From Escherichia phage vB_EcoM_EP57, in the sequence record OR544956: a stretch of DNA of 64,000 bases. One strand, given 5' to 3'. The first letter of the stretch is position 1. Each line of letters starts with the position of its first letter. A program made the position numbers and the translations under genes. This document shows positions 687 to 58,132 of this stretch, piece by piece. The notes beneath the pieces were generated by a model that was not told where the DNA came from, searched no databases, and saw nothing but the letters and a program-made list of their open reading frames with translations.

Positions 687-692
687 TAAATG

Positions 693-717
693 AGCCTCCT
701 TCGGGAGGCTATTTTAT
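693..717 (+). terminator. Intrinsic terminator after terC
   Basis: agcctcc-ttcg-ggaggct hairpin followed by attttat. Confidence 0.5.
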
Positions 718-728
718 AGGAGAGACTT

Positions 729-1079
729 ATGAGTAATTTTGATGAAATTCAAGAACTTGTTTGGGATTTATCTGGTGATGTGGATTACATTTCAGATTAT
801 CTTTCAAAAGTTTACCCTGGGGTAAGCGTTATGATTGTGACCAAAGATCCAATTAATTTGCCTCCTAATGTTGTAGCTTGTTGTGGAAGTGGTTCAGGAG
901 AAGTAGAGCCTGTATCTCGTTGGGAATTAACTAAAGCTGTTTCAAAACGAAACGGTGAAGTTTTGAATATTGATATTGAGCAAATATGGACTTCTCCAGC
1001 AGCCAAATGGAATGATCCAAATGGTTGGGATTTGTTCTTCTGGGATAATGAGACTGATGATGAGGTGTTTTTAAAATGA
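729..1079 (+). CDS. Hypothetical protein
   Basis: ORF with ATG start preceded by ggagag; no recognisable motif. Confidence 0.4.
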   Translation: MSNFDEIQELVWDLSGDVDYISDYLSKVYPGVSVMIVTKDPINLPPNVVACCGSGSGEVEPVSRWELTKAVSKRNGEVLNIDIEQIWTSPAAKWNDPNGWDLFFWDNETDDEVFLK

Positions 1080-1146
1080 AATACTTGTTGGTTGTGTTTG
1101 AAAATATCTGTTTTGCAATAGGGTTGTTTGTTGTAATTTTTGTATT

Positions 1147-1175
1147 GACAAGCGTAATCAACGGCAGTAAAGTGA
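1147..1175 (+). promoter_or_regulatory. Candidate sigma70-like promoter (TTGACA-17-TAAAGT)
   Basis: TTGACA at 1147-1152 and TAAAGT 17 nt downstream, upstream of the lipoprotein gene. Confidence 0.3.
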
Positions 1176-1262
1176 GTTTATACCGAGATGGAGAGCAACT
1201 TTATTGCTTCTCTGGAGATTTCAAACACAGATGTATTAATAGCCAAAACGAGGAAAGCAAAT

Positions 1263-1700
1263 ATGAAAAAACTAGCCCTGATTTTAATTGGTTGTATCTT
1301 TTTAACAGCTTGCGAGGATGAAACAAATCCTGCACAATACCAACAACCTCCTCAACAATACGCTCAACAAGGATCTGACGGAGATACAACTATTATCAAC
1401 AATGGTGGCGGTTCTAGTAGTAGCGGTGTTGGTGAGTTTGCTACAGGTATGTTGTTAGGGCATATGATGAGTGGCGGTAGTAATCGTAGCAGTGGGGATT
1501 ATAACGATAACAGAACGATTATTAATAAGCATTATAATACACCTAAACCGAAAACTAATTTTTATGGTAAGCCTAAACAAGAGATAAAAACTTATGAAAA
1601 GCCGAGACAAACTTTTAAAACAAATAGTAGCTATACAACTCGTAAATCTTACAATAGCCCTTTAAGTAAAAAGAGTTCATCTCGTAGCAAGCGACGTTAA
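1263..1700 (+). CDS. Putative lipoprotein (signal peptide with lipobox LTAC, Gly/Ser-rich, basic C-terminus)
   Basis: Internal ATG at 1263 preceded by gaggaaag; MKKLALILIGCIFLTAC; the track ORF 1188..1700 is the same frame with an earlier start. Confidence 0.5.
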   Translation: MKKLALILIGCIFLTACEDETNPAQYQQPPQQYAQQGSDGDTTIINNGGGSSSSGVGEFATGMLLGHMMSGGSNRSSGDYNDNRTIINKHYNTPKPKTNFYGKPKQEIKTYEKPRQTFKTNSSYTTRKSYNSPLSKKSSSRSKRR

Positions 1701-1714
1701 TAAGGAGAAAAACA

Positions 1715-2308
1715 ATGACAATTTCTATTCGTACTTCCATCGTAGGTGTTAAAAGGTTGCCTAATGCTTTGCAAATCACACGCGCTTTGAGGGATACATT
1801 CTCTGCTGTGGACGAGCATAAGATGCTTGATAATCTTTCAAATTGGCCCTATTTCCATTATTTTAAAAATGAAGATGACGAGTTTATAGACGCTGTTTCT
1901 TATGGTTATGATTTCGGTAAGGAGGTTTCTGCTGAAGAATTTGTAGCTATGGTGTTCCCAAACGGTTTGCCTACTCGCAGTAAACGTAAAAAAGGACCAA
2001 AAAACAAGAAACGTGCTACTAATAAAGCTACCATTTTCTTTACTGATGGCACACAATATACGATTAAAGATTTTGAAGAGGTATCTTATACAGCAGGTGG
2101 GAATCTTTCTTTCTACACCATCAAAAAACAAAACTCTACGTTCAGCCATGTTTCTAACATGATTGAAATGTTAGTAGAAGATATTGAAAGCGTAGCTGTG
2201 TTAGGTATGCATAAAAGCTTTTTAATTACAAATATTTCAGATTTCAGTGCAAGTTTATCTGGCCCTGATTTTGAAGCCACGACCACGCATTTCGCTTTTA
2301 AGGTGTAA
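1715..2308 (+). CDS. Hypothetical protein
   Basis: ORF with aggagaaaaacaATG ribosome-binding context. Confidence 0.45.
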   Translation: MTISIRTSIVGVKRLPNALQITRALRDTFSAVDEHKMLDNLSNWPYFHYFKNEDDEFIDAVSYGYDFGKEVSAEEFVAMVFPNGLPTRSKRKKGPKNKKRATNKATIFFTDGTQYTIKDFEEVSYTAGGNLSFYTIKKQNSTFSHVSNMIEMLVEDIESVAVLGMHKSFLITNISDFSASLSGPDFEATTTHFAFKV

Positions 2309-2311
2309 GTT

Positions 2312-2902
2312 ATGCATACCGAGAGAGACTTGCAACTCTTGTGGTGGGAAGTGATGCAGGAAATAAAAGAAGATTTTCCTGTTTACTACAACATGTTACG
2401 TGAAGCAGGATATAAAGCTTGTGTTAGAAACAAAGTGAATAACTCTTTCGGTTGGTGCAACTACCGAGATAAAATTGTTGTTGTAAATTGGCACTTGCAT
2501 AAGAACTCCACAAGAGATATGATCGTGGATACAATGAAGCACGAAATTGCTCATGCTATTGATGGTTGTATGGGTAAGTTTAGTAGGCACGGTGCTCATT
2601 GGCAAAAACTGGCAGCAGAATTAGGGGCTAATCCTAAAGCCACTTCCAAAGAGCCGTTGAACCACGAATATAAATATGTTCTTGTTCTGGTAGATAGGTT
2701 TGCGACAAGATGTGTTAGAGGTTATAATCGTAAACCTAATCGCATGTACCCAGGTAAGCAACCTAATATGTGGTTGAAATCAGATAAAGAAGGGACCGAA
2801 GGAAAATTATGGTTGTATAAATGGGACGATTGGGTTAAAGTAGCTAAAGAGTACGGTGTTTCACCATATATAAGAGATGCAGAAGAGGAGAATGAAGAAT
2901 GA
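2312..2902 (+). CDS. SprT-like zinc metallopeptidase domain protein (putative)
   Basis: HEIAH motif in a context (KHEIAHAIDGCMGKFSRHGAHW) resembling SprT-family proteins. Confidence 0.4.
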   Translation: MHTERDLQLLWWEVMQEIKEDFPVYYNMLREAGYKACVRNKVNNSFGWCNYRDKIVVVNWHLHKNSTRDMIVDTMKHEIAHAIDGCMGKFSRHGAHWQKLAAELGANPKATSKEPLNHEYKYVLVLVDRFATRCVRGYNRKPNRMYPGKQPNMWLKSDKEGTEGKLWLYKWDDWVKVAKEYGVSPYIRDAEEENEE

Positions 2903-4011
2903 CAAGTCCATTTTTAAAAGCAGCTACTGGTGGTCAGAAGAAGCCTGAAATGAGCGTATTTGCTGCAACAACAGATGCAAGTAAATCTGTATTCGCTCCA
3001 AGCGTGTTAGATGCCAGTCCTGTTTATGCACCAGCGGCACCGCAAGAAGTTCCAGTTTTGCCTTCTATGACCCGACAAGAGATCGAAGAGATTGGGGCAG
3101 AGGCAGGAACAACCTTGCGTTCCTTGAATGCCGAGGTATTAAAACATCAACGTAGTAATCAAGGCGATCAGATGAGTGAACGACTCACAGCTTTGATTAA
3201 ACAGGCAAAACAACTTGATCCAAACTCTATTAAACAAAGCAAGGGTATTACTAAACTCATTAAAAAAGTTATGGGTATGAAAGAAGACCTGTTTGGGGAG
3301 TTTGATAATGTTAATAACCGTATTGAAGAGTTGGTAAAGAACCTTCAAATGGATATTCGCAAAGAAGAAGATTCCTTGGTATATCTTGAAAAGCTACATC
3401 AAGCTATTGGACAATATGCTGCAAGTTTGAACCGAGATATGCAGCTTCTAACAGCAACCTATGAAAAAGAAGAACAAGCTTTGGCTGCTCTTCCAGAAGA
3501 TGCAGTAGAACAGCGACAAGTGATCCGAGATACTTTGGATCTTCTGGAGATTCGTATTGCAGATTTAAAAGCATTGCGCCTACTGTGTGTCCAAATGGGA
3601 CCGCGTGTACAAGGTATGCAAAAAGTTTCTGCAAGCTTAATGCGATCTGCGCGTAACATAGTAAATAATGTTATTCCTGCTTACTCTGCTAACTTCTCAA
3701 TGTATATAGAGAGCTTACGTCAAATGAAAGCAGCAGAGACGCAGAATAACGTTCTTGATGAATTTAACCTGGCAATTAAACTGGGTAGCGATCTTGCCAC
3801 ACAGAATCAGATCGAAGCAGCAGCACTGGCTAACCGTCAAGTGTTGGATATTGAAACTCTGCGTCACGATCAGGAAAACTTGGTTAAGATGTTGGAAGAA
3901 ACTAACCGCATCAATACGGAAGCCCGTGCTGCTCGTGTTGATTATATTAATGAAGTTCAATCTCTGGAAGACGGGATGGTAGCTGCTGTGAAACGAGGGC
4001 TTGGTAAATGA
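2899..4011 (+). CDS. TelA-like coiled-coil protein (putative toxic-anion-resistance family)
   Basis: 370 aa, coiled-coil rich; pattern LKALRLLCVQMGPRVQGMQKV ... LDIETLRHDQENLVKMLEE resembles TelA/KlaA family; sits inside a Ter-like gene cluster. Confidence 0.4.
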   Translation: MTSPFLKAATGGQKKPEMSVFAATTDASKSVFAPSVLDASPVYAPAAPQEVPVLPSMTRQEIEEIGAEAGTTLRSLNAEVLKHQRSNQGDQMSERLTALIKQAKQLDPNSIKQSKGITKLIKKVMGMKEDLFGEFDNVNNRIEELVKNLQMDIRKEEDSLVYLEKLHQAIGQYAASLNRDMQLLTATYEKEEQALAALPEDAVEQRQVIRDTLDLLEIRIADLKALRLLCVQMGPRVQGMQKVSASLMRSARNIVNNVIPAYSANFSMYIESLRQMKAAETQNNVLDEFNLAIKLGSDLATQNQIEAAALANRQVLDIETLRHDQENLVKMLEETNRINTEARAARVDYINEVQSLEDGMVAAVKRGLGK

Positions 4012-20220: not shown

Positions 20221-21849
20221 TTATAAAGAGTTTTTATAAAAGAAAAGATACTCAACAACCATACCAGGTAAGCTTGCTGCCCCTGTTGGCGTTATTTCTG
20301 CTACCATTGTTTGTGTTGTTCCTACATCCATCGCAGATAAGCTAGGAGTGTAAACGCTCAATGTTGAAGCATATCCTCCAGAGGTATCTGATAAAGTTGT
20401 TCCTTCAGCGTTTAAGGCTGTCATACCTGCATCAAAACCACCTTCTGCATGGAAAGTCATTAAACCAGTAGATGATATTGTCATGTTTGCAGGGGCAGAA
20501 GAAGTGTATTTAATATTGAAAAGTTTACCTCCTTCTGGGCTAACAGAATGTGTCAACTGTTTAGTTCCACCTACAATACAAATTCCTAAAGAATCTGTAG
20601 TTAAGCCAGTTGCCAGAATATCACCCGTAATCACGGAGCTTGCTATTGGTGTGAATTTATTATAGTTTAGACCGCTATTGAACAGATACGAGGCTTTCCC
20701 ATCTTTCCAAATACCGGAATAATACATATCTCCATTATAAACGAAAAAGGTTCCTTGATAACCTAATTGGTTAGTAACATCCATATTCAGCGTATGAACG
20801 CTTGTGAGCTTGTTTATATCCCAAGAACCCACTCCTTCAGGTTTAACTGGTTTTCCCACTTGGAGTGGATCTCCGCTCGCAGAATCATACCCCAAACCTA
20901 AGTTTGCAGTGTAGTTCTTACCAATAGCCCACAAGGAATTATTGATCCCAACGAAAAAAGAGTGGCGGCTTGGTGGAAACTTCCATGTTGAGAAACCTGC
21001 TGCAAAGGTATCCAGTTTAGTGTAGGTTGTTTCTGTATTAGACCTAACATATAAGTAGTTTACTGTACCCGAGCCACCGGAGGTATCTCCTACAACTATT
21101 GTCTGGGAAACTGTATTGATGTAATCTTTGACATACACTGTTTCAGTAGCGGATATCTTAGCATTGACAAAAGCTGTTGTTGTGTTATTATTACCTGCTA
21201 AACCTTTACTAGCTCCACAAACACGCAAGGTTCCCACATTGTTGACATAAGAGCATTGGTTGTAACCTGCATCAAAAGCAACTGCTGCACTTGTTATCTG
21301 ACGAGGAGTAGAAACTTCGTTAGTAGTACTTGCACCTAAACTACCTACTGTGTTTTGACCTGATCCATAAAGAACACCACTATTCATTAACCAGAGAGTG
21401 TTGTTATATCCTCCCTTAACCTCTTTAAGATTGGCTAAAGAGATAGTCCCTGTTATTACAGATGGAAAGCTGGTCCAAGTAGTTACACATGCGTCCGTAC
21501 CACCTGCCGCTATAGATCCTACCAATCCTGCTGTCAATCCTGAATATTGCCATCCCCCACTGTTAGTTTTAATAACAAAACAACGATCTGCGGTAAACAC
21601 ATCCGCTACTACAGTAGAAGCTAAGTGGAAATTATTGAATCGTGCACTACGAGTTCCATCTGCAATCTCACCAAAAAGGTTTGCGCCTTGAGTAAACAAT
21701 CTACCATCATTAAGCAAAATTGCTAAACTGCTATTAGAATTACCAGCATTATCTGGGTAATCTAAAGTGATTACTTTTTTAACAATACCTGCTGGCAGAG
21801 GAACGACACCAGTGCTGGTCATAATAGTAAATATTGGAATTGGAAACAT
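20221..21849 (-). CDS. Tail fiber or receptor-binding protein (Gly/Thr/Ser-rich, repetitive)
   Basis: 542 aa, last gene of the late module; repeated G-x-hydrophobic segments. Confidence 0.4.
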   Translation of the reverse strand: MFPIPIFTIMTSTGVVPLPAGIVKKVITLDYPDNAGNSNSSLAILLNDGRLFTQGANLFGEIADGTRSARFNNFHLASTVVADVFTADRCFVIKTNSGGWQYSGLTAGLVGSIAAGGTDACVTTWTSFPSVITGTISLANLKEVKGGYNNTLWLMNSGVLYGSGQNTVGSLGASTTNEVSTPRQITSAAVAFDAGYNQCSYVNNVGTLRVCGASKGLAGNNNTTTAFVNAKISATETVYVKDYINTVSQTIVVGDTSGGSGTVNYLYVRSNTETTYTKLDTFAAGFSTWKFPPSRHSFFVGINNSLWAIGKNYTANLGLGYDSASGDPLQVGKPVKPEGVGSWDINKLTSVHTLNMDVTNQLGYQGTFFVYNGDMYYSGIWKDGKASYLFNSGLNYNKFTPIASSVITGDILATGLTTDSLGICIVGGTKQLTHSVSPEGGKLFNIKYTSSAPANMTISSTGLMTFHAEGGFDAGMTALNAEGTTLSDTSGGYASTLSVYTPSLSAMDVGTTQTMVAEITPTGAASLPGMVVEYLFFYKNSL

Positions 21850-21890: not shown

Positions 21891-23429
21891 TTATCGTGTT
21901 ACAACAACCATGTCCACGATATCACCCACACCAGGATACGTTAATTGCAAAATTGTTACTGCGTTAGCAGTAGTTGCTATTTCTGTATCATTTAGTGCTC
22001 CATAAGACGCATCTAGTGTAACCGTGTGTCCCGTTGTATCTTGAATCAAATAAATCATTGCTGAAAACGCTTTAGGTTTTGTAGAGCCAGTGACACCAGG
22101 CCATGCTCCAACTGTCAGAGCGTCAGTTACTGTAACAACATACATATTGGAAGTTCCAGAAGGAGTCCAAGATGCTCCAGAGTTGGCAGTAGTTGTTTCA
22201 AGTTCCATGAAACCTGCTGTAACTCTAGTTGGTGTTATAGCTTCCGTAGGATCTGATCCTGATATTTCGATCCAGTTTCCATCAGAACGACCATACGTCA
22301 AGCCGTCTTGAGGGGCTTCTGGTATACTAGGAAGAGTTCCTATAAGTGTCCACGTAGAAGAATCTGTTTTCTTAAACACTGCTCCAGTGGTAGTATTGAA
22401 GGCGTAATCATTGATAACACCGTCTCCTGCGACTGGATTAGTTGTTGCTACAAACCATTGTGCGCCGTCCTTACCGACAAAATCTACTTCTGTCCCTTCA
22501 TTACCAGCATCCAGCCAACTTTGATATGCAGATTTCCCTTCGTCTCCATCTGTTCCATCTAGACCGTCTTTACCTGCCTCACCTTGTGGACCTTGAGGAC
22601 CAACAATATTACCCATGTTGACCCAAGCTGTCCCATTAGAGACATAAAGATTACCACTGATAGAATAAGCTTGGCTTACGTTTTCAGAGTTAGGTTGTGG
22701 TAAGTTACTTGTAGAAGGCAAATCTCCACGATAATCAAAACCGTTGGCGTTAACACCAGGTGCTCCCTGTGGCCCTGTAGGACCAACATCGCCTTTATCA
22801 CCTTTTATAGAGGTAAGAAAATCATAAACAGACCCTGTATTACCATCTGCCAACCATACCTCGTAAGCTGATTTACCTTCTGGCCCAAGAGAAGAAATAA
22901 GTTTCCAAACAGAACCATCCCAAGCGTAAATCACATCACCTACAATATAACCGTCCCCTGCAACGTTACCTGTGGATGGTAGTTCACTAGTGCTTGCTAA
23001 TGATCCTTTAATATTAAGTTGAGCACCAGTATCCCCTTTCAAAGAGGCAAGCCATTGTGCTTCTGTTCCAACAAAACCATTATCAAGTGCGATCTGATAA
23101 GCCGATTTACCAGCTTCAGGTATTGTTTCCGACAGATCATCAATTTGTTGCTGCACTGCCGTAAACTTGGCATTGATAATTGCTATATCATCAGCGGTCC
23201 CAACACTTTGCCATGCAAGGGAAGAAATACCACCTGTGGTGGCTGGCGTAGAGTTTGCTGGAACTACTTTAGGAAAAGTTCCTTTCCATTGGTAATAATT
23301 CCCTTCTGCTGCTAACAGCAAAACTTCACGGGAATTACGTAATGTAAAACCTGCCTCAAAGCTGCGACGTTTTCGATAAGTAGCTTCTACCAGATCGGCT
23401 ATCGCACTATTAGGTCTTGTTAAATTCAT
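21891..23429 (-). CDS. Tail fiber protein with collagen-like G-X-Y repeats
   Basis: GDKGDVGPTGPQGAPG and GPQGPQGEAGKDGLDGTDGDEGKSAY; repeated KSAYQ/EVWL modules. Confidence 0.6.
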   Translation of the reverse strand: MNLTRPNSAIADLVEATYRKRRSFEAGFTLRNSREVLLLAAEGNYYQWKGTFPKVVPANSTPATTGGISSLAWQSVGTADDIAIINAKFTAVQQQIDDLSETIPEAGKSAYQIALDNGFVGTEAQWLASLKGDTGAQLNIKGSLASTSELPSTGNVAGDGYIVGDVIYAWDGSVWKLISSLGPEGKSAYEVWLADGNTGSVYDFLTSIKGDKGDVGPTGPQGAPGVNANGFDYRGDLPSTSNLPQPNSENVSQAYSISGNLYVSNGTAWVNMGNIVGPQGPQGEAGKDGLDGTDGDEGKSAYQSWLDAGNEGTEVDFVGKDGAQWFVATTNPVAGDGVINDYAFNTTTGAVFKKTDSSTWTLIGTLPSIPEAPQDGLTYGRSDGNWIEISGSDPTEAITPTRVTAGFMELETTTANSGASWTPSGTSNMYVVTVTDALTVGAWPGVTGSTKPKAFSAMIYLIQDTTGHTVTLDASYGALNDTEIATTANAVTILQLTYPGVGDIVDMVVVTR

Positions 23430-23491: not shown

Positions 23492-24940
23492 TTAGGTTGT
23501 TGGCACATCTACTACTGGCGTTGGGCGAATAACCGCAGTATTACCTACAGAAACATTACTGGAATCATTAGGTATGGTTTTAATTCTAACTCCAGCACTT
23601 GTAGGCGTTACAATTGGATCTGCAATGTCTATTTTAACTGGGTTAGTCCACGTATCATTATCTTGATAAGGTGCACGAGTAATAACTGTGTCCAAATCTG
23701 CTCCACCTACGCCAGCACCAGGAATACGGATACGTGTCCCTGCTGACAGAGGGTAATGATACAACCAAGAAGCATTTGTTGCTGTCCCGTTAGGAGTCAA
23801 GTTCTGTGTCAGGAAGGTATCTCCTGCCTGTGTAGCTCGAATACCGAAAGCTGGGATATCTGGAATATATGCCCCACTTGTTGTTACAAGGAAGAACGTA
23901 TTATCCGCCTTGACTATCATATCACCTTTGTCAAACTCTTTCCCTGTTGGGAAATGCATTCCATCAATGTTTCGACTAGGATTAGGCTCTAAGTAATAAA
24001 CTTTGCCCGTTGTCCCTACAATAGCTCCAATACCACCTGCGATATTGGTATACATATTAGCTTCAACATTACAGTTGACACGATGAATATCCGAGTAACG
24101 GCAACGGCTCCACTGTGGACGACCAGTAACCATCGTCTTGCCATCTGGGTAACAGTTTACGTTAACCATTTCAAGAACAGATTTTTCTCTACGGAAGAAT
24201 CCATCATAAAATGTTCCTGGACCAGATTCAGGTTGACCAACACAATCGAAGATATTACAGGTGATGTTAGACATTGAAAGCCAAGAAGCTATACCGAACA
24301 ACTGCAATGCAGCGCAACGAATATTTTCAAAGCTAACTCTGTTTTCATAACCTGGCCCAGCGGAAACTCCCGCAAAAACACGCCCAGTTTTGGTGTGAAT
24401 GTTACGAACAGAATAGTTAAAGCATGGGTTTGAAGGTCTACCCTGTGCCGGAACTACCGGATTACCCTCTTCGTCCAGAACTGCGTTAGTTCCCCACTCC
24501 AAATAAATCATACGGATATTACTTGCAAGTGTGCTACCGTCTGTTTTAGGCTCCCCATAAACACCGTCAATCGTAAAATCTTTACTTCCATACATTACAA
24601 CTGCGCCAGTTGCCAAACCTGTCCCAACAGATACGGTTTGATCTGGATCGCCATGAATGTTTTCGATAGAAATATTACGACCAACTTCTACGTGGACAAT
24701 CTGACGGCAACGTTTTGCAAAAACGTTACGAATTGTAATATTCTTGCAATATTGATCATCAGGGATTCCGTAACCATATGGTCCTTTACCAGCTACACCG
24801 ATACCGATACCCCAGTTGGACAGAGGAATAGGAGCGTTAGTCCCATCGATATTAGACAGGTAAATATTCTCAATCACACAACCATCATCATAATGTTTAT
24901 TGATGACGTTCAGTTCTATCGCATCACCTTGCATGTCCAT
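23492..24940 (-). CDS. Tailspike or tail fiber C-terminal segment with a parallel beta-helix (pectate-lyase-like) region
   Basis: NITIRNV...ISIENIHG...NIRMIYLEWG repeats; its frame is open upstream of the first Met and overlaps the end of 24970..25704 in the -1 frame. Confidence 0.5.
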   Translation of the reverse strand: MDMQGDAIELNVINKHYDDGCVIENIYLSNIDGTNAPIPLSNWGIGIGVAGKGPYGYGIPDDQYCKNITIRNVFAKRCRQIVHVEVGRNISIENIHGDPDQTVSVGTGLATGAVVMYGSKDFTIDGVYGEPKTDGSTLASNIRMIYLEWGTNAVLDEEGNPVVPAQGRPSNPCFNYSVRNIHTKTGRVFAGVSAGPGYENRVSFENIRCAALQLFGIASWLSMSNITCNIFDCVGQPESGPGTFYDGFFRREKSVLEMVNVNCYPDGKTMVTGRPQWSRCRYSDIHRVNCNVEANMYTNIAGGIGAIVGTTGKVYYLEPNPSRNIDGMHFPTGKEFDKGDMIVKADNTFFLVTTSGAYIPDIPAFGIRATQAGDTFLTQNLTPNGTATNASWLYHYPLSAGTRIRIPGAGVGGADLDTVITRAPYQDNDTWTNPVKIDIADPIVTPTSAGVRIKTIPNDSSNVSVGNTAVIRPTPVVDVPTT

Positions 24941-24969
24941 GAAGGTAAGGTTACGGAAGACACCACGTG

Positions 24970-25704
24970 TTACTGGTTCCCCTGTCCCTTGTTGAAGCCA
25001 TATAACCCGTTTTTAAAAGTACAGTTATCAATTTCAAAAGTACCTGATATTGGGTTGCCTTGGAATACCAAGCTACCAACTTGACCTGCGCGAGGAGCAC
25101 CGTCCCACAAACAATCGAACATGCGCACAGCACCACCCCAATACATAACACGAGAGTTACGGAAAGTTGTGCCTTCTACTGTAGCATTTTGCACACGATA
25201 GTCGCGTTGACCACGGAACACACCCCCACGCAAAGTGATATCTTGAATATCAAAAGAGCTTGTCGTGAAAGTCATATCGCAACCGTAAGCATCGAGAATC
25301 TTGCTTTTCGAAGCTTTTGCTGCTAACAGTGCCGCCTGGAAAGCTGCTTCTGGTGTGGTATAGGTAGTTGTATTGTTAGCAAATTCTGACAAGTAGACAA
25401 CATCGAATAAATCGTTGTATGTTCCACCACGAGGGGTTAACAGTCCTTCCGTATTAGTTAGAACCCATGCGTTTGGACCTAATCCACCGCTTGTCTCTAA
25501 TGTGTCAGAGGCCAAAATACTTTTTGGTAAACTTCCAGCCCAACGATAACGACCAGCACCACGTCCAATCGTCTGATTTTTAGCTGTCAGGGTTACGTTA
25601 TTACCAAAGCTTGTAGGCAAATGGACAAATTGTCCACGTTCAACAGCCAGTGCAGAAAGATCTACAGATCCCCCAGAATAAGTCATTACTCCAGAAACAG
25701 ACAA
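24970..25704 (-). CDS. Tailspike middle segment, probably the same gene as 23492..24940
   Basis: This frame is open upstream of its TTG start; junction to the downstream ORF lies at a TTTTAAAAA run near 25010. Confidence 0.4.
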   Translation of the reverse strand: MSVSGVMTYSGGSVDLSALAVERGQFVHLPTSFGNNVTLTAKNQTIGRGAGRYRWAGSLPKSILASDTLETSGGLGPNAWVLTNTEGLLTPRGGTYNDLFDVVYLSEFANNTTTYTTPEAAFQAALLAAKASKSKILDAYGCDMTFTTSSFDIQDITLRGGVFRGQRDYRVQNATVEGTTFRNSRVMYWGGAVRMFDCLWDGAPRAGQVGSLVFQGNPISGTFEIDNCTFKNGLYGFNKGQGNQ

Positions 25705-25709
25705 AGATG

Positions 25710-26261
25710 TTAAAGTTCCTGTAATGTTAGGAGGTAGTGTGTAGGAAGACTGTGACTATCTTCTATGCGGAAAGCTTCCCCCAGAACCTGAATAACACCA
25801 TTGATCGTAACAATAGCACTATCAAAGATGTAAGGAGGACTAATTACTGTTTCATAACCAGTTGCACCAGAATATACCCAAGGGGTGACTTCTGTTGCCA
25901 ATTGTTCTGTCTTCAGTCCCCACAATACCCAGTTGTTATCTCCTACTGGAGTCCCTTGCATAGGGATAGGGTTAACCAATGTAGCGTTAGGAGCATAGTA
26001 ATAACCGCTCAATACTCCATTCTGGAAATAACGAAGTTGGTTAAAAACTGTTTCGTTTGTGCCTTGCGCCCAATCCAATGGGCTTTTAAAGAAAAAGTTG
26101 TCAACAAGGGCTTTTCTCAGGGTTGGTATCAACCCTGATTCTGTTTCAATACTCTCTGTAGCACTTCCATTAATAACATCATGGAGTTGGTTAGATGAGA
26201 AAATAACCAGGTCTACGCCCTGTTCGAGAGACGTTGCTGGATATGTTGGGAATGTTGCCAT
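25710..26261 (-). CDS. Tailspike N-terminal segment or separate tail-associated protein
   Basis: Ends 5 nt upstream of the next ORF; both frames are open across the junction. Confidence 0.35.
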   Translation of the reverse strand: MATFPTYPATSLEQGVDLVIFSSNQLHDVINGSATESIETESGLIPTLRKALVDNFFFKSPLDWAQGTNETVFNQLRYFQNGVLSGYYYAPNATLVNPIPMQGTPVGDNNWVLWGLKTEQLATEVTPWVYSGATGYETVISPPYIFDSAIVTINGVIQVLGEAFRIEDSHSLPTHYLLTLQEL

Positions 26262-26557: not shown

Positions 26558-26950
26558 TTATTGCATCCTTTGCAAGTCCCCATGCGTAGCATCTGTAATA
26601 TTTGCCGACAAGTGATTATGACTGTTATCTAGAACTTGAATAGATAAAGTAACTTCTTTATTACCATTCCAAGTAGCCTCACCAGTAGCATCACCTGCCA
26701 TTGTAATCTTAGTTCCAACTAAAGGCAAGTAAGTATCAGGTAAAGTTGGAAGAAAGTCATCCACCAAATAGCGAATCCATAAACCGATATTATTAAGAAT
26801 CCAGTTCATTTCTTCGCAAGTCATGATTTGACCATAATCCATACCAACTGTGCGGATGGTTTCTTTAGGTCTAATTTTGTTTGTGTTTAAAGTTCCTGGG
26901 AGCGTTACAGTTTGTGTAGCCCAGTCAGGATAATATATTGGCTTCGCCAT
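26558..26950 (-). CDS. Hypothetical tail or baseplate protein
   Basis: ORF track; position in the tail module. Confidence 0.35.
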   Translation of the reverse strand: MAKPIYYPDWATQTVTLPGTLNTNKIRPKETIRTVGMDYGQIMTCEEMNWILNNIGLWIRYLVDDFLPTLPDTYLPLVGTKITMAGDATGEATWNGNKEVTLSIQVLDNSHNHLSANITDATHGDLQRMQ

Positions 26951-27591: not shown

Positions 27592-27933
27592 TTACACTCC
27601 ATACTCGTAAGAAATGTTATCAAGGTCAAAAGAAGGGACAACATTATAAGCAGGAACTATATTATTCTCTGTATATTTACTGTCATCCTCAGTATTAAGT
27701 TTAACATAAACACGAAGAGAAGTCAAGCGTCCAAAAGCAAGTGCTGCATAAATAACCCCTTTGATTTGATCGTTCGTTACTGAAGAACCTAATTCAAAGT
27801 AAGCTTGCAGGTTTTGTAAAGCTTCTACGATGTTTTGTTTTTCTGTTCCACTTAAAGTTGTTCCGTTGACAGTTTGATAAACAAGTTTTACAGAATACAT
27901 AGCAGAAGCACCTTTCTTCAGCACTCCCTCCAT
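27592..27933 (-). CDS. C-terminal segment of the baseplate J-like protein (different frame from 27794..28969)
   Basis: Overlaps 27794..27933 with the upstream ORF, whose last ~40 residues look out-of-frame. Confidence 0.35.
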   Translation of the reverse strand: MEGVLKKGASAMYSVKLVYQTVNGTTLSGTEKQNIVEALQNLQAYFELGSSVTNDQIKGVIYAALAFGRLTSLRVYVKLNTEDDSKYTENNIVPAYNVVPSFDLDNISYEYGV

Positions 27934-28969: not shown

Positions 28970-29151
28970 TAGTCATCCTCTTTGGTAGATTGTGATCTGC
29001 CCCAACGTAAATCAATAAGATTTTTCATGAGGCGAGAAGGGGTTATCATGAAAACAAAAGCCCAACCCATCCATTCAGGAATTTCTTTTTCTATTCCTAA
29101 AAAGATAAACATGCCTGTCATAACAGACATGCCTACAGCGTTCCAGACCAT
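28969..29151 (-). CDS. Small two-TM membrane protein
   Basis: Two hydrophobic segments in 60 aa. Confidence 0.3.
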   Translation of the reverse strand: MVWNAVGMSVMTGMFIFLGIEKEIPEWMGWAFVFMITPSRLMKNLIDLRWGRSQSTKEDD

Positions 29152-29202
29152 TAACTTTTGATGTTTCGGGTAAATTAGTAATTGTAGTTGACATTTTTAC
29201 TC

Positions 29203-29517
29203 CTATATATAAAATTTTTGTGTTGTTACTAAATCTTCTCCAGATTTAGTGGCTAATGTAATTCCACTTATGGTGGCAATCTCAACATTTACCTGTTTAA
29301 GAGTGATATCCTGTAAATAAACGTTCAAAGGCACGTTACCCATATAGAAAACTTGGGATTGAGAATTAACTACCGTGATAGAATCGTGCATTATTTGAGG
29401 ATAGGCCCATATATATTGTGTAAGTCCGTCAAACTTATTGGCGTTCAACACTATGTTACCTATAATCATCTTCCAAAGATACGTGCGGTAGTTTGATTTA
29501 GGATCAAAGCCATACAA
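29203..29517 (-). CDS. C-terminal segment of the Calx-beta tail protein (-1 frame)
   Basis: Overlaps 29466..29517 with 29466..31283. Confidence 0.35.
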   Translation of the reverse strand: MYGFDPKSNYRTYLWKMIIGNIVLNANKFDGLTQYIWAYPQIMHDSITVVNSQSQVFYMGNVPLNVYLQDITLKQVNVEIATISGITLATKSGEDLVTTQKFYI

Positions 29518-49981: not shown

Positions 49982-52057
49982 TTATCTTTTACGGACACTA
50001 TACGGTTGGTGAAATCCGCTGTTCATTCTACTGTATCCTGTAGGAGCATTTGTTGTTGTAGGGATAGCTACTGCTTTGAAAGTATTCTCTTTTGACAGAG
50101 TATTAAAACAAGAGGCAGCAGCATCGGGAATGTCATCTTTAATAGTGGCTGTAGATCTTTCACCATTGAAAGATTCCAATTCTTTATAAAAGTGGGTTAA
50201 AGTCTCCACATTAGGGAAAGAATCTTCAACAATATAAACAAAACCGTTTTGACACGCACTACTAAAAGGCATGAAACGCTGAAGCTTTTTCTTGTTACCT
50301 GGCATAGCATCTGGTTTAACAACAAAACCCTCTAGAATAAGTTTCTTTGCAGACTCTGTGTATTCTATTGTCCCAGCACCAGATGGGTCTTTAGGAAGCA
50401 CTACTGTAACTTCTGGTCCATCAATCTTACATTGATTTAGAATCAGGTTATCCCTTTCCCCAGGTAGTCTTCGAAACCTTCCGAAAATTTTACTTTTCTC
50501 ATCCACAGCATCATAATCATAGTCGCCAAAGATGTAGATATTACCATCTTGGTCTTTACCCATTTTGACAGATGTTGTATAGTCTGGATAACGGTAAGTT
50601 TCTGTAGGAACTGAAACAGCTTTATCCCATGCTCGCATTAGTTTAAGATTGTTAGGAACATCTTTATAAGATATTTTATGTAACCATTCACGTTGAAAGA
50701 AAGATTCTTTCTGGATACGTGCAAACCAACAACCGTCCAGAAGCTGTGCTCTTTTGATCGCTGTTTGTGATTTAAGCTGTGCTAAGTAATTAGGGTTAAG
50801 CCTAATGAGTTCTGGGTTATCAAATATTGTCCCACCAATAAATACGAAAGTTTGTGGTTCAATAACAACTGTCTCCCCTGTATTAGGGTTTTCCATGAAA
50901 CAGTTTTCTGGATATTTTTCTTTCAGTTCTTCAGGTGTGTCAGCAAAAACAGGTTCATCGTTAACAATGATGAAATATTTTTGTTTACCACACATATCTT
51001 CTCTAGGATAACCACCCTCATCAAGATAAGGTAACACCCAATTCAAAACCCAACTATCTGCGTCAGGGTTACATGTGCACAACATGAAACTTGTTTCTGA
51101 CTCTGAACGCATACGTCCCAGAAGATAGAGCATTTCATATTGTGTGAAGTGGGTTAACTCGTCAAAACCTACCATTGAATACTGTGTACCCTGATGGTTT
51201 GTTTCTGCTGTTACGTTATCATTTTCCAAATGGTCAAATTTGAGGGTTCCGCCACCAGTGGCTTCAAAAATGATATCCATTGTACTTTCTTTTACGTGTG
51301 GTTGTAAAGGAAGATACAAACGTTTTGCTTCTGTAAACAGACCACCTGGTTTACGGTGAGCAGTGGTGTTCTTACGGAAAAGTATTCCACCAAACAAAGG
51401 GTCTTTGTAGGCGTATTTTAAAGCTTTCAGCAATAGCAGACGAGACTTGCCGCTATTCCCAGTAACGAAGCAGTGATCGCCACGTCTAAAGACAATATAG
51501 CTGCTTGGAGTCTCAAAACAATATTTCTTATCATCTGTTGAAATAACCTCGTGTATTTTTAAGTAAGTGCTCTTTTTACCAGGTATGTTAAAAGGAACAC
51601 GTTTACCGAATGGATTTTCTACATAACCTTGCAGGGGTTTTCCTATTTGCTGTAATGCAATAAGATCTCCTACAAGAATCTCGAAATGTTTCTTTGATTT
51701 CTTTTTCTTATAGAATACAAAACGGTGTTCCATACTAAGTTCTTGGAATAATCCTACACCATTTGTTATTCTGTATAGGTTATCTCCATTTAAATCGTAT
51801 TCTACAAAATAAGGTGTTACCAATTCTAAACGCTTATTCTTAGGATTGTATTGGTAAATATCCTCTCCCGAATATTCACTAATCTGCCTCCAACCATCTT
51901 TTGTAAGATATTCCGTTTCAGCAGAAACACATCCAGCGGCACCACCATAAATCATAACCTCTGGCATTAAATCCATTGCAAGAGTCTGTTTACCTGGTTG
52001 AGCCTTTACTTCAATATCTACTCCAGCTAAACTACCTGCTGCCTTTTTCTTTGCCAC
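49982..52057 (-). CDS. Terminase large subunit, intein-containing
   Basis: Walker A split as GGAAG / SGKS by an insertion; C-terminal nuclease region; 691 aa including a 159-aa intein. Confidence 0.8.
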   Translation of the reverse strand: MAKKKAAGSLAGVDIEVKAQPGKQTLAMDLMPEVMIYGGAAGCVSAETEYLTKDGWRQISEYSGEDIYQYNPKNKRLELVTPYFVEYDLNGDNLYRITNGVGLFQELSMEHRFVFYKKKKSKKHFEILVGDLIALQQIGKPLQGYVENPFGKRVPFNIPGKKSTYLKIHEVISTDDKKYCFETPSSYIVFRRGDHCFVTGNSGKSRLLLLKALKYAYKDPLFGGILFRKNTTAHRKPGGLFTEAKRLYLPLQPHVKESTMDIIFEATGGGTLKFDHLENDNVTAETNHQGTQYSMVGFDELTHFTQYEMLYLLGRMRSESETSFMLCTCNPDADSWVLNWVLPYLDEGGYPREDMCGKQKYFIIVNDEPVFADTPEELKEKYPENCFMENPNTGETVVIEPQTFVFIGGTIFDNPELIRLNPNYLAQLKSQTAIKRAQLLDGCWFARIQKESFFQREWLHKISYKDVPNNLKLMRAWDKAVSVPTETYRYPDYTTSVKMGKDQDGNIYIFGDYDYDAVDEKSKIFGRFRRLPGERDNLILNQCKIDGPEVTVVLPKDPSGAGTIEYTESAKKLILEGFVVKPDAMPGNKKKLQRFMPFSSACQNGFVYIVEDSFPNVETLTHFYKELESFNGERSTATIKDDIPDAAASCFNTLSKENTFKAVAIPTTTNAPTGYSRMNSGFHQPYSVRKR
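51455..51931 (-). other. Mini-intein (Hint domain without homing endonuclease) inserted in the terminase P-loop
   Basis: Begins with Cys (CVSAETEYL) right after GGAAG and ends ...DHCFVTGN followed by SGKS; removing it restores a GGAAGSGKS-type P-loop. Confidence 0.6.
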
Positions 52058-57332: not shown

Positions 57333-58132
57333 GCAACTATCCAATTACAGGCGTAACCTATTCTTGTGTAGCAAAAGGTGGTTTATATACAGTAGTGGAA
57401 TTTCCAAAACCTGCCGGAATATCTAAAGTGTTTGATCCTGTGGTTATCTATGAAGATCTTAGAACAGGTCAACGTTACTGGAGATTTGTGAATGACTTTT
57501 TAGATCGTATGGAGGTAGTAAGTGGCGAAAACACCGAAGAAGTTATCAAAGCCAACGTTACTAAGAAACCGAAAAACGAGGTTCTCAAAGTAGCCAAATC
57601 AGTTCCTAAGAAAGATAAATTTGATACGGAGGCATTCGTCTTTGACACACCAATCGAGAAGATTGAAGAAGCGTTGCAACGTCTTGAGGAGCAGGAGGCA
57701 GATCCAATGGCTGAACCACTCGCTGAAGCAAAAAACATTGGTCGTTCCAATGAAACAACACCAGAAGAACAAGCTGAACTTGAAGCTTTTGCCAAATGGA
57801 CAAAACAGTTAAAGAATGGCTATTATAAAACAAAAGAAGAAGCTGAAAACCATGTTCCTTCCACACCAATGAAATGCCAGGATTATAAAGATTATCCTGA
57901 AAGGGTTGTGTTCCCTGGTTATGCACAATACAAACTGAACGGGTTACGTTCTATGATTAACATGAAAGGAGAGTGTTTATCAAAAGCTGGGGAAGTGTAC
58001 AACCTGCCACCTCATTGGAAAGGTATTCCAAACTTTATTAGTGAAGTTGTTGGTCATCCTCTTGATGGTGAAGTGTTTGCTGGGTTAGGTGTCCTTAGTC
58101 TGCAACAAATTAACAGTGCTTGCAGTAGTTGA
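57329..58132 (+). CDS. ATP-dependent DNA ligase-like protein, N-terminal and adenylation part; frame changes near 58090-58130
   Basis: Motif I-like YKLNGLR (KxDG-type with N in place of D) and motif III-like LDGEVFA. Confidence 0.45.
   Translation: MSNYPITGVTYSCVAKGGLYTVVEFPKPAGISKVFDPVVIYEDLRTGQRYWRFVNDFLDRMEVVSGENTEEVIKANVTKKPKNEVLKVAKSVPKKDKFDTEAFVFDTPIEKIEEALQRLEEQEADPMAEPLAEAKNIGRSNETTPEEQAELEAFAKWTKQLKNGYYKTKEEAENHVPSTPMKCQDYKDYPERVVFPGYAQYKLNGLRSMINMKGECLSKAGEVYNLPPHWKGIPNFISEVVGHPLDGEVFAGLGVLSLQQINSACSS

Follow-up and report, generated by a model that had tools for sequence, protein, structure and literature searches.

A predicted colanidase tailspike gene split by two deletions of probable assembly origin in the deposited genome of Escherichia phage vB_EcoM_EP57

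Three consecutive open reading frames occupy positions 23492..26261 in the 64,000-nt stretch from record OR544956 (Escherichia phage vB_EcoM_EP57) that was analysed here and is referred to as the window. Their arrangement raises the question of whether they are separate genes, parts of one protein joined by ribosomal frameshifting, or the remains of one tailspike gene, and in the last case whether the gene was broken in the phage or in the record.

Three reading frames and their counterpart in relatives

An ORF scan together with three-frame translation of the minus strand identified ORFs A, B and C, separated by 5 nt (A/B) and 29 nt (B/C). GenBank annotates them as separate hypothetical proteins (found for WPK29293 and WPK29291).

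26261..25710, minus strand: ORF A, 183 aa, ATG start (WPK29293.1)
25704..24970, minus strand: ORF B, 244 aa, TTG start
24940..23492, minus strand: ORF C, 482 aa, ATG start (WPK29291.1)

Both changes of frame are steps to the -1 frame and neighbouring frames overlap by 43–46 nt. The second frame is open upstream as far as 25755 and the third as far as 25012, which confirms the description in an earlier note, drawn from the letters of the DNA, of three consecutive ORFs with successive -1 steps and with downstream frames that extend beyond their annotated starts.

Megablast comparison with 50,697 phage records showed 98–99% nucleotide identity of the region to more than 60 Phapecoctavirus genomes (phAPEC8-like E. 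coli myoviruses), and in every one of these relatives the matching stretch was approximately 284 nt longer. Ro121lw, TSP7_1 and phAPEC8_ev052 carry here one CDS of 3054 nt (1017 aa) labelled 'putative colanic acid-degrading protein'. A 961-nt query laid over both lesion sites matched 64 phage records, 52 of which aligned on both sides of the joint, and all 52 spanned 1244–1245 nt (961 + 284) within a single annotated CDS. Among the remaining 12 records, the 8 listed ones aligned only to the right of the 280-nt joint described below, as their N-terminal part is more divergent. Neither deletion was shared by any relative among the 64 matching records. The corresponding protein cluster at 90% identity has 169 members. 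Among the 15 listed, 12 have the full length of 1017 aa, and the remaining three comprise the pair of EP57 fragments and an incomplete protein encoded on a 1.3-kb contig. The phage itself belongs to the genus Phapecoctavirus (Stephanstirmvirinae), with 98.4% identity over approximately 60 kb to phAPEC8_ev052 and Ro121lw and the same gene order. No match to the window was obtained in the E. coli complete genomes searched, so the window is not a prophage remnant. Comparison with these relatives showed that the region is one gene, which by homology encodes the putative Phapecoctavirus colanidase tailspike, an ortholog of phAPEC8 gp178 and a homolog of phi92 gp150. A literature search for phAPEC8 together with colanic acid found no paper.

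Pairwise alignment with an intact relative placed two lesions within the gene and divided it as follows.

23492..26261, minus strand: tailspike gene remnant, 2770 nt (3054 nt, 1017 aa, in relatives)
25755..26261, minus strand: segment 1, codons 1–169, N-terminal anchor; ORF A adds 14 out-of-frame codons past the joint
25754..25755, minus strand: joint of a 280-nt deletion; Ro121lw bases 2047..2326 (L001 numbering) absent, microhomology 0–1 nt
24997..25754, minus strand: segment 2, codons 264–515, tailspike N-domains and start of the catalytic domain; ORF B adds 8 out-of-frame codons
25010..25018, minus strand: TTTTAAAAA run (T4A5), identical in the intact relative and not the lesion
24996..24997, minus strand: joint of a 4-nt deletion (CATC/ATCC) in the catalytic domain, placed by pairwise alignment
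23492..24996, minus strand: segment 3, codons 517–1017 and stop, most of the catalytic and C-terminal part of the colanidase; ORF C begins at internal Met536 (24940)

The codons missing at 25755|25754 are 170–263 (94 codons), corresponding to a coiled linker and the start of a CBA120-type tailspike N-domain, and at the smaller joint the relative reads TATGGCATCCTTCAAC where the window has TATGGC----TTCAAC. As the losses of 280 and 4 nt both equal 1 mod 3, they account for the two -1 frame steps. When the window was padded with 280 + 4 N, one frame of 1017 codons with zero internal stops was obtained, in which 920 of 922 comparable residues match Ro121lw; the tailspike genes of the two phages differ at 35 nucleotides, only 2 of which change an amino acid. 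The three frames correspond, at 99.8% identity, to successive stretches of a single 1017-aa protein, and on this comparison the three-frame arrangement is no chance pattern.

The earlier suggestion of one tailspike broken by indels was correct with respect to the single gene, which is a 3054-nt CDS in relatives, but the first junction is no small indel and consists of the 280-nt deletion. Similarly, the intact protein measures 1017 aa and not approximately 900 aa as had been supposed, and the second junction, formerly assigned to the TTTTAAAAA run, does not lie there, as the run is the same in intact relatives and the 4-nt deletion sits 13 nt downstream. A homopolymer sequencing error was considered and rejected, since neither lesion falls in a homopolymer and the sizes are 280 and 4 nt. 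The right edge of the 280-nt deletion was also considered as a natural mosaic boundary, as the match to 12 phages begins only at query position 103; this was rejected, since no alignment can continue unbroken through the joint and the left piece of the query (106 nt) is too divergent in these 12 phages.

Domain anatomy and translation signals

Profile and structure comparisons indicate a protein of three parts. The N-terminal anchor matched phrog_4549 and phrog_2710 (tail fiber N-terminus) and PDB 9cuy_g (E 2e-19). In the intact protein PF18668 (Tail_spike_N; E 3e-10 for segment 2) was located at aa 302–361, and PDB 4oj5/5w6f matched over aa 226–399 (E 1e-26 to 1e-30); ORF B aligned to residues 54–172 of the PDB 4oj5/4qnl tailspike N-domain. 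Colanidase-family homology, in both phrog_6117 and 6e0v, extends across the whole catalytic region: phrog_6117 ('colanic acid degradation') covers aa 186–997 of the intact relative (E 8e-283), and phi92 gp150 (PDB 6e0v) covers aa 426–1000 (E 1e-79) and aligns with ORF C at its residues 184–623 (E 9e-71). ORF B occupies phrog_6117 profile positions 57–269 and ORF C positions 270–708, exactly contiguous at 269|270. The Pfam Beta_helix model gave a sub-threshold match (E 0.0095, 16 bits against a cut-off of 25.9), and we infer from homology to 6e0v that the tailspike probably adopts a right-handed beta-helix fold.

By analogy with these matches, the anchor domain would fix the tailspike to the baseplate fibre network, the CBA120-type tailspike N-domains would come next, and the C-terminal catalytic domain is predicted to cut colanic acid exopolysaccharide, through which the phage may reach the cell surface. 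A single continuous polypeptide from anchor to enzyme is lacking in the record as deposited, where the frame is broken twice, and is recovered after restoring 280 + 4 nt. We attribute its loss to a fault of the record and not of the phage.

The domain alignments of ORFs B and C place both breaks inside folded domains, the 280-nt loss in the tailspike N-domain and the 4-nt loss in the catalytic domain. This bears directly on the view that the three ORFs are independent genes, with anchor, adaptor and enzyme as naturally separate modules, which would be in keeping with the separate hypothetical proteins listed in GenBank (WPK29293 and WPK29291 found). Against this view, the breaks do not fall between modules, no relative is split at either site, and the one further split copy found (L007) is due to a nonsense codon elsewhere in the gene. 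Translation signals also argue against it: a Shine-Dalgarno-like AAGGGG precedes the ATG of ORF A, the AGGA upstream of the TTG of ORF B is weak and distant, and no Shine-Dalgarno sequence or ribosome-binding site was found upstream of the ORF C start at internal Met536. The genuine multi-gene arrangement that had been offered as the alternative to a broken tailspike is thereby given up, as a ribosome-binding site precedes ORF A alone, and we regard the independent-genes reading as effectively refuted, with hardly any probability left to it. Two programmed -1 ribosomal frameshifts, which would join the ORFs into a protein of approximately 900 aa, are equally improbable. The direction of both steps, the overlap between frames and a TTTAAAA heptamer close to the second junction are compatible with such a mechanism, but the relatives encode the protein in one frame with identical flanks, including the T4A5 run, and the first frame change coincides exactly with the 280-nt deletion. 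No X_XXY_YYZ slippery heptamer in the zero frame was found in either overlap; junction 1 lacks any such heptamer, and the sole one, TTTAAAA at 25017..25011 within the TTTTAAAAA run, is in the wrong frame. The two-frame arrangement was not conserved, with a single frame in every relative examined, and programmed frameshifting is likewise effectively refuted.

Deletions across the window and the origin of the breaks

The whole window was compared with two relatives, Ro121lw and phAPEC8_ev052, which differ from each other by 0.65% and by approximately 15 tiny, mostly intergenic indels. Approximately 35 deletions of 1 nt to 4.9 kb were private to the window; their net lengths were divided evenly among the classes 0, 1 and 2 mod 3 and added up to approximately 9.3 kb (13% of the stretch); most of the larger joints showed 0–1 nt of microhomology. 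The deposited EP57 genome of 130,723 bp, compared with 145–153 kb in relatives, has the same shortfall of 13%. The homologous stretch has 94 annotated CDS, of which 53 kept their length, approximately 19 were frameshifted, 15 were lost and 7 had in-frame indels. This classification is approximate, as is seen from the tail fibre gene, whose loss of 486 nt is in frame. Tblastn located the tail tube, head closure, baseplate J and primase/helicase genes each in two frames with 97–100% amino acid identity on both sides, and found TerL, portal, major capsid, sheath and DNA polymerase intact; a frame-breaking deletion is also present in the tail completion gene. Two further joints lie close to the tailspike gene.

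26585..26589, minus strand: joint of a 1270-nt deletion, placed by comparison with relatives
27912..27913, minus strand: joint of a 110-nt deletion of the same lesion class, which frameshifts a baseplate J/gp47-family gene

The 1270-nt deletion takes most of a gpH-domain gene, the whole tail-fiber-assembly gene and the beginning of the small gene that comes next, and the baseplate J/gp47-family gene shows 100% amino acid identity before its break and 97% after it, in different frames. A 158-nt piece of approximately read length at 29149..29306 replaces 87 nt and is 100% identical to a site approximately 2 kb away in tuntematon-type phages, and such a displaced piece points to a misjoin.

Window-private substitutions were distributed 68/20/438 over the codon positions and comprised 457 synonymous, 68 nonsynonymous and 1 stop change (87% synonymous), proportions near those of natural relatives. 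As the substitutions are mostly synonymous and the deletions are blind to frame, the point differences look as though selection had filtered them, and the deletions do not. The decay of a pseudogene within a host genome was also considered as a candidate and rejected, as the whole window is phage, the substitutions are synonymous in this high proportion and 97–100% amino acid identity is kept beside the checked breaks.

vB_EcoM_EP57 forms plaques, with efficiency-of-plating and burst-size data, and was sequenced with Illumina 2x150 reads and assembled with SPAdes 3.13 (PMC11657129). Frameshifts in the tube, baseplate and primase genes are incompatible with plaque formation, and the occurrence of the same kind of lesion throughout the window therefore points to a faulty assembly and to nothing specific to the tailspike gene. 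We infer that the tailspike split is most probably an assembly or finishing artefact and not biological. The 280-nt and 4-nt deletions would then belong to genome-wide dropouts from assembly or finishing, which could have arisen if fragmented contigs were strung together in the order of a reference with no gap markers, or if bases lacking coverage were omitted from the consensus, and the real EP57 would carry an intact tailspike gene of 1017 codons. The artefact reading assumes an unreported finishing step, such as contig joining or a base-dropping consensus, and it has to contend with the fact that a de Bruijn assembler alone does not delete 280 nt without a repeat. Two other points count against it: laboratory hosts may not require the phage to have the colanidase, in which case a real deletion in this one gene would be tolerated, and an independent Logan contig (SRR29980973) that contains the exact 482-aa ORF C sequence, within a full-length gene carrying S499*, shows that disrupted copies of the tailspike gene can occur elsewhere. 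The S499* change is a lesion unrelated to the EP57 deletions.

Alternatively, both deletions may be real EP57 mutations and the colanidase tailspike a recently inactivated pseudogene, of which no more would be left than an N-terminal stub attached to the virion and a C-terminal fragment made separately. The deletions are indeed present in the sequence as deposited, colanic acid is unneeded as a receptor on many hosts, the nonsense allele in the Logan sample offers a precedent, and the 486-nt loss in the neighbouring tail fibre could, being in frame, be natural. Nevertheless, we consider this unlikely, as the tube, head closure, tail completion, baseplate J and primase/helicase genes show equivalent breaks, which are impossible in a plaque-former, nonsynonymous change is not in excess in the gene (2/35 differences), none of the 64 relatives carries either deletion, and neither the metagenome nor the genome collection contains the junction sequence. 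The 280-nt junction gave 0 matches in these collections, for which the control was weak, the intact boundary itself being present in 2 metagenome contigs and 0 genome contigs; scans of IMG/VR for the two deletion junctions and the intact 4-nt site were all without match and are uninformative, as that collection seemingly holds no close Phapecoctavirus. Still more improbable is a version in which the deletions are real and either a population of multiply deleted genomes in EP57 stocks would be kept by complementation, or the truncated tailspike would yield a virion with an N-terminal stub and a free soluble colanidase fragment from Met536.

The artefact reading has consequences for the use of this record. 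The tailspike gene is ordinary and already known, and what EP57 lists here as three 'hypothetical proteins' are pieces of a single known colanidase tailspike. At 130.7 kb, the EP57 record deserves a quality flag and is unfit as evidence for split tailspikes, frameshifting or gene loss in Phapecoctavirus. Were the deletions true, they would represent merely the routine loss of an accessory depolymerase.

Relation to known tailspikes

The closest known systems are phAPEC8 gp178, Ro121lw AXA27980.1 and ESCO13 YP_009786629.1, with 98–99% nucleotide identity to the window copy. The Phapecoctavirus colanic acid-degrading gene and the window copy lie at the same position, between a small hypothetical gene and a collagen-like tail fibre gene, but the window copy is without codons 170–263 plus one base and without 4 nt at codon 516, and is consequently read as three ORFs. 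According to PMC12210895, a colanidase spike is conserved across Justusliebigvirus, Phapecoctavirus and Seunavirus, and the Justusliebigvirus-type spike (phage BME3, phi92-like) has approximately 74% similarity to that of Phapecoctavirus. According to a passage of PMC13450770 that cites Xu et al. 2025, phi92 gp150 hydrolyses the beta-1,4 Glc-Fuc bond of colanic acid. The Phapecoctavirus protein appears homologous to gp150 (PDB 6e0v/6e0w) in its catalytic and C-terminal part, with the activity being that reported for gp150 only; phi92 belongs to another genus and the N-terminal anchor of gp150 is unlike that of the Phapecoctavirus protein. CBA120-type tailspike N-domains (PDB 4oj5, 5w6f, 5w6h; PF18668) are matched by residues 226–399 of the intact protein, whereas the catalytic domains of CBA120-type tailspikes are unrelated, and it is the first approximately 30 residues of this N-module that the 280-nt deletion removes from the window copy.

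Deletions private to the window

Comparison of the window with two close relatives, Ro121lw and phAPEC8_ev052, identified about 35 deletions between positions 187 and 60535 that were private to the window and ranged in size from 1 nt to 4.9 kb. Approximately 34 of the 94 genes were frameshifted or removed by these deletions, including genes for the tail tube, head closure, tail completion, baseplate J, DNA ligase and primase/helicase, and the EP57 genome as deposited is 13% below its relatives in length. The largest deletion and the shortened tail fibre gene downstream of the tailspike were located as follows:

57721..57725, site of the biggest missing piece, about 4.9 kb that is present in the relatives and absent here
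21891..23429, minus strand, collagen-repeat tail fibre gene, downstream of the tailspike

The 4.9-kb gap takes in part of the DNA ligase gene together with an RNA ligase/tail attachment gene, a metallophosphatase, an anti-restriction nuclease and about 10 small genes. The collagen-repeat tail fibre is 512 aa in the window in comparison to 674 aa in the relatives, a shortfall that corresponds to 486 nt lost in frame (joint 22479|22476), and the window protein forms a single-member cluster. Unlike most other deletions in the window, this loss could represent natural repeat variation. Additionally, a deletion of about 1100 nt at 20241..20247 truncates a protein of 891 aa in the relatives to its N-terminal part, a 542-aa ORF (20221..21849).

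Replaced segment and irregularities in other records

At 29149..29306, where two baseplate-region genes meet, a segment of 158 nt (roughly read-length) stands in place of 87 nt. At 100% identity it matches a site about 2 kb away in phages of the tuntematon/ESCO5 type, where 'tail protein I' ends and the spike gene that follows begins. The segment is probably the product of a misjoin; alternatively, it points to a mixed sample.

Irregularities were also observed in two other records. An independent Logan contig (SRR29980973_1001, L007) carries the tailspike gene at full length (688..3741), and an apparent TCA>TAG change at codon 499 (S499*) in the contig sequence caused it to be called as two genes of 498 and 482 aa. 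The Ro121lw record (MH160766.1) possesses a tandem duplication of 127 nt at about position 93936, missing from both phAPEC8_ev052 and the window; it interrupts a gene of 2676 nt, which is annotated there as two separate CDS. As 127 is a common SPAdes k-mer, the length of this duplication suggests an assembly artefact in the Ro121lw record too.

Large terminase and the published description of EP57

The large terminase gene is found in the window:

49985..52057, minus strand, large terminase (TerL), intact, 691 aa

The encoded protein is 99.7% identical to TerL of phAPEC8_ev052, whereas the paper describing EP57 stated that TerL was not found (PMC11657129). The same paper assigned the phage to Autographiviridae; judged by its sequence, however, EP57 is a Phapecoctavirus.
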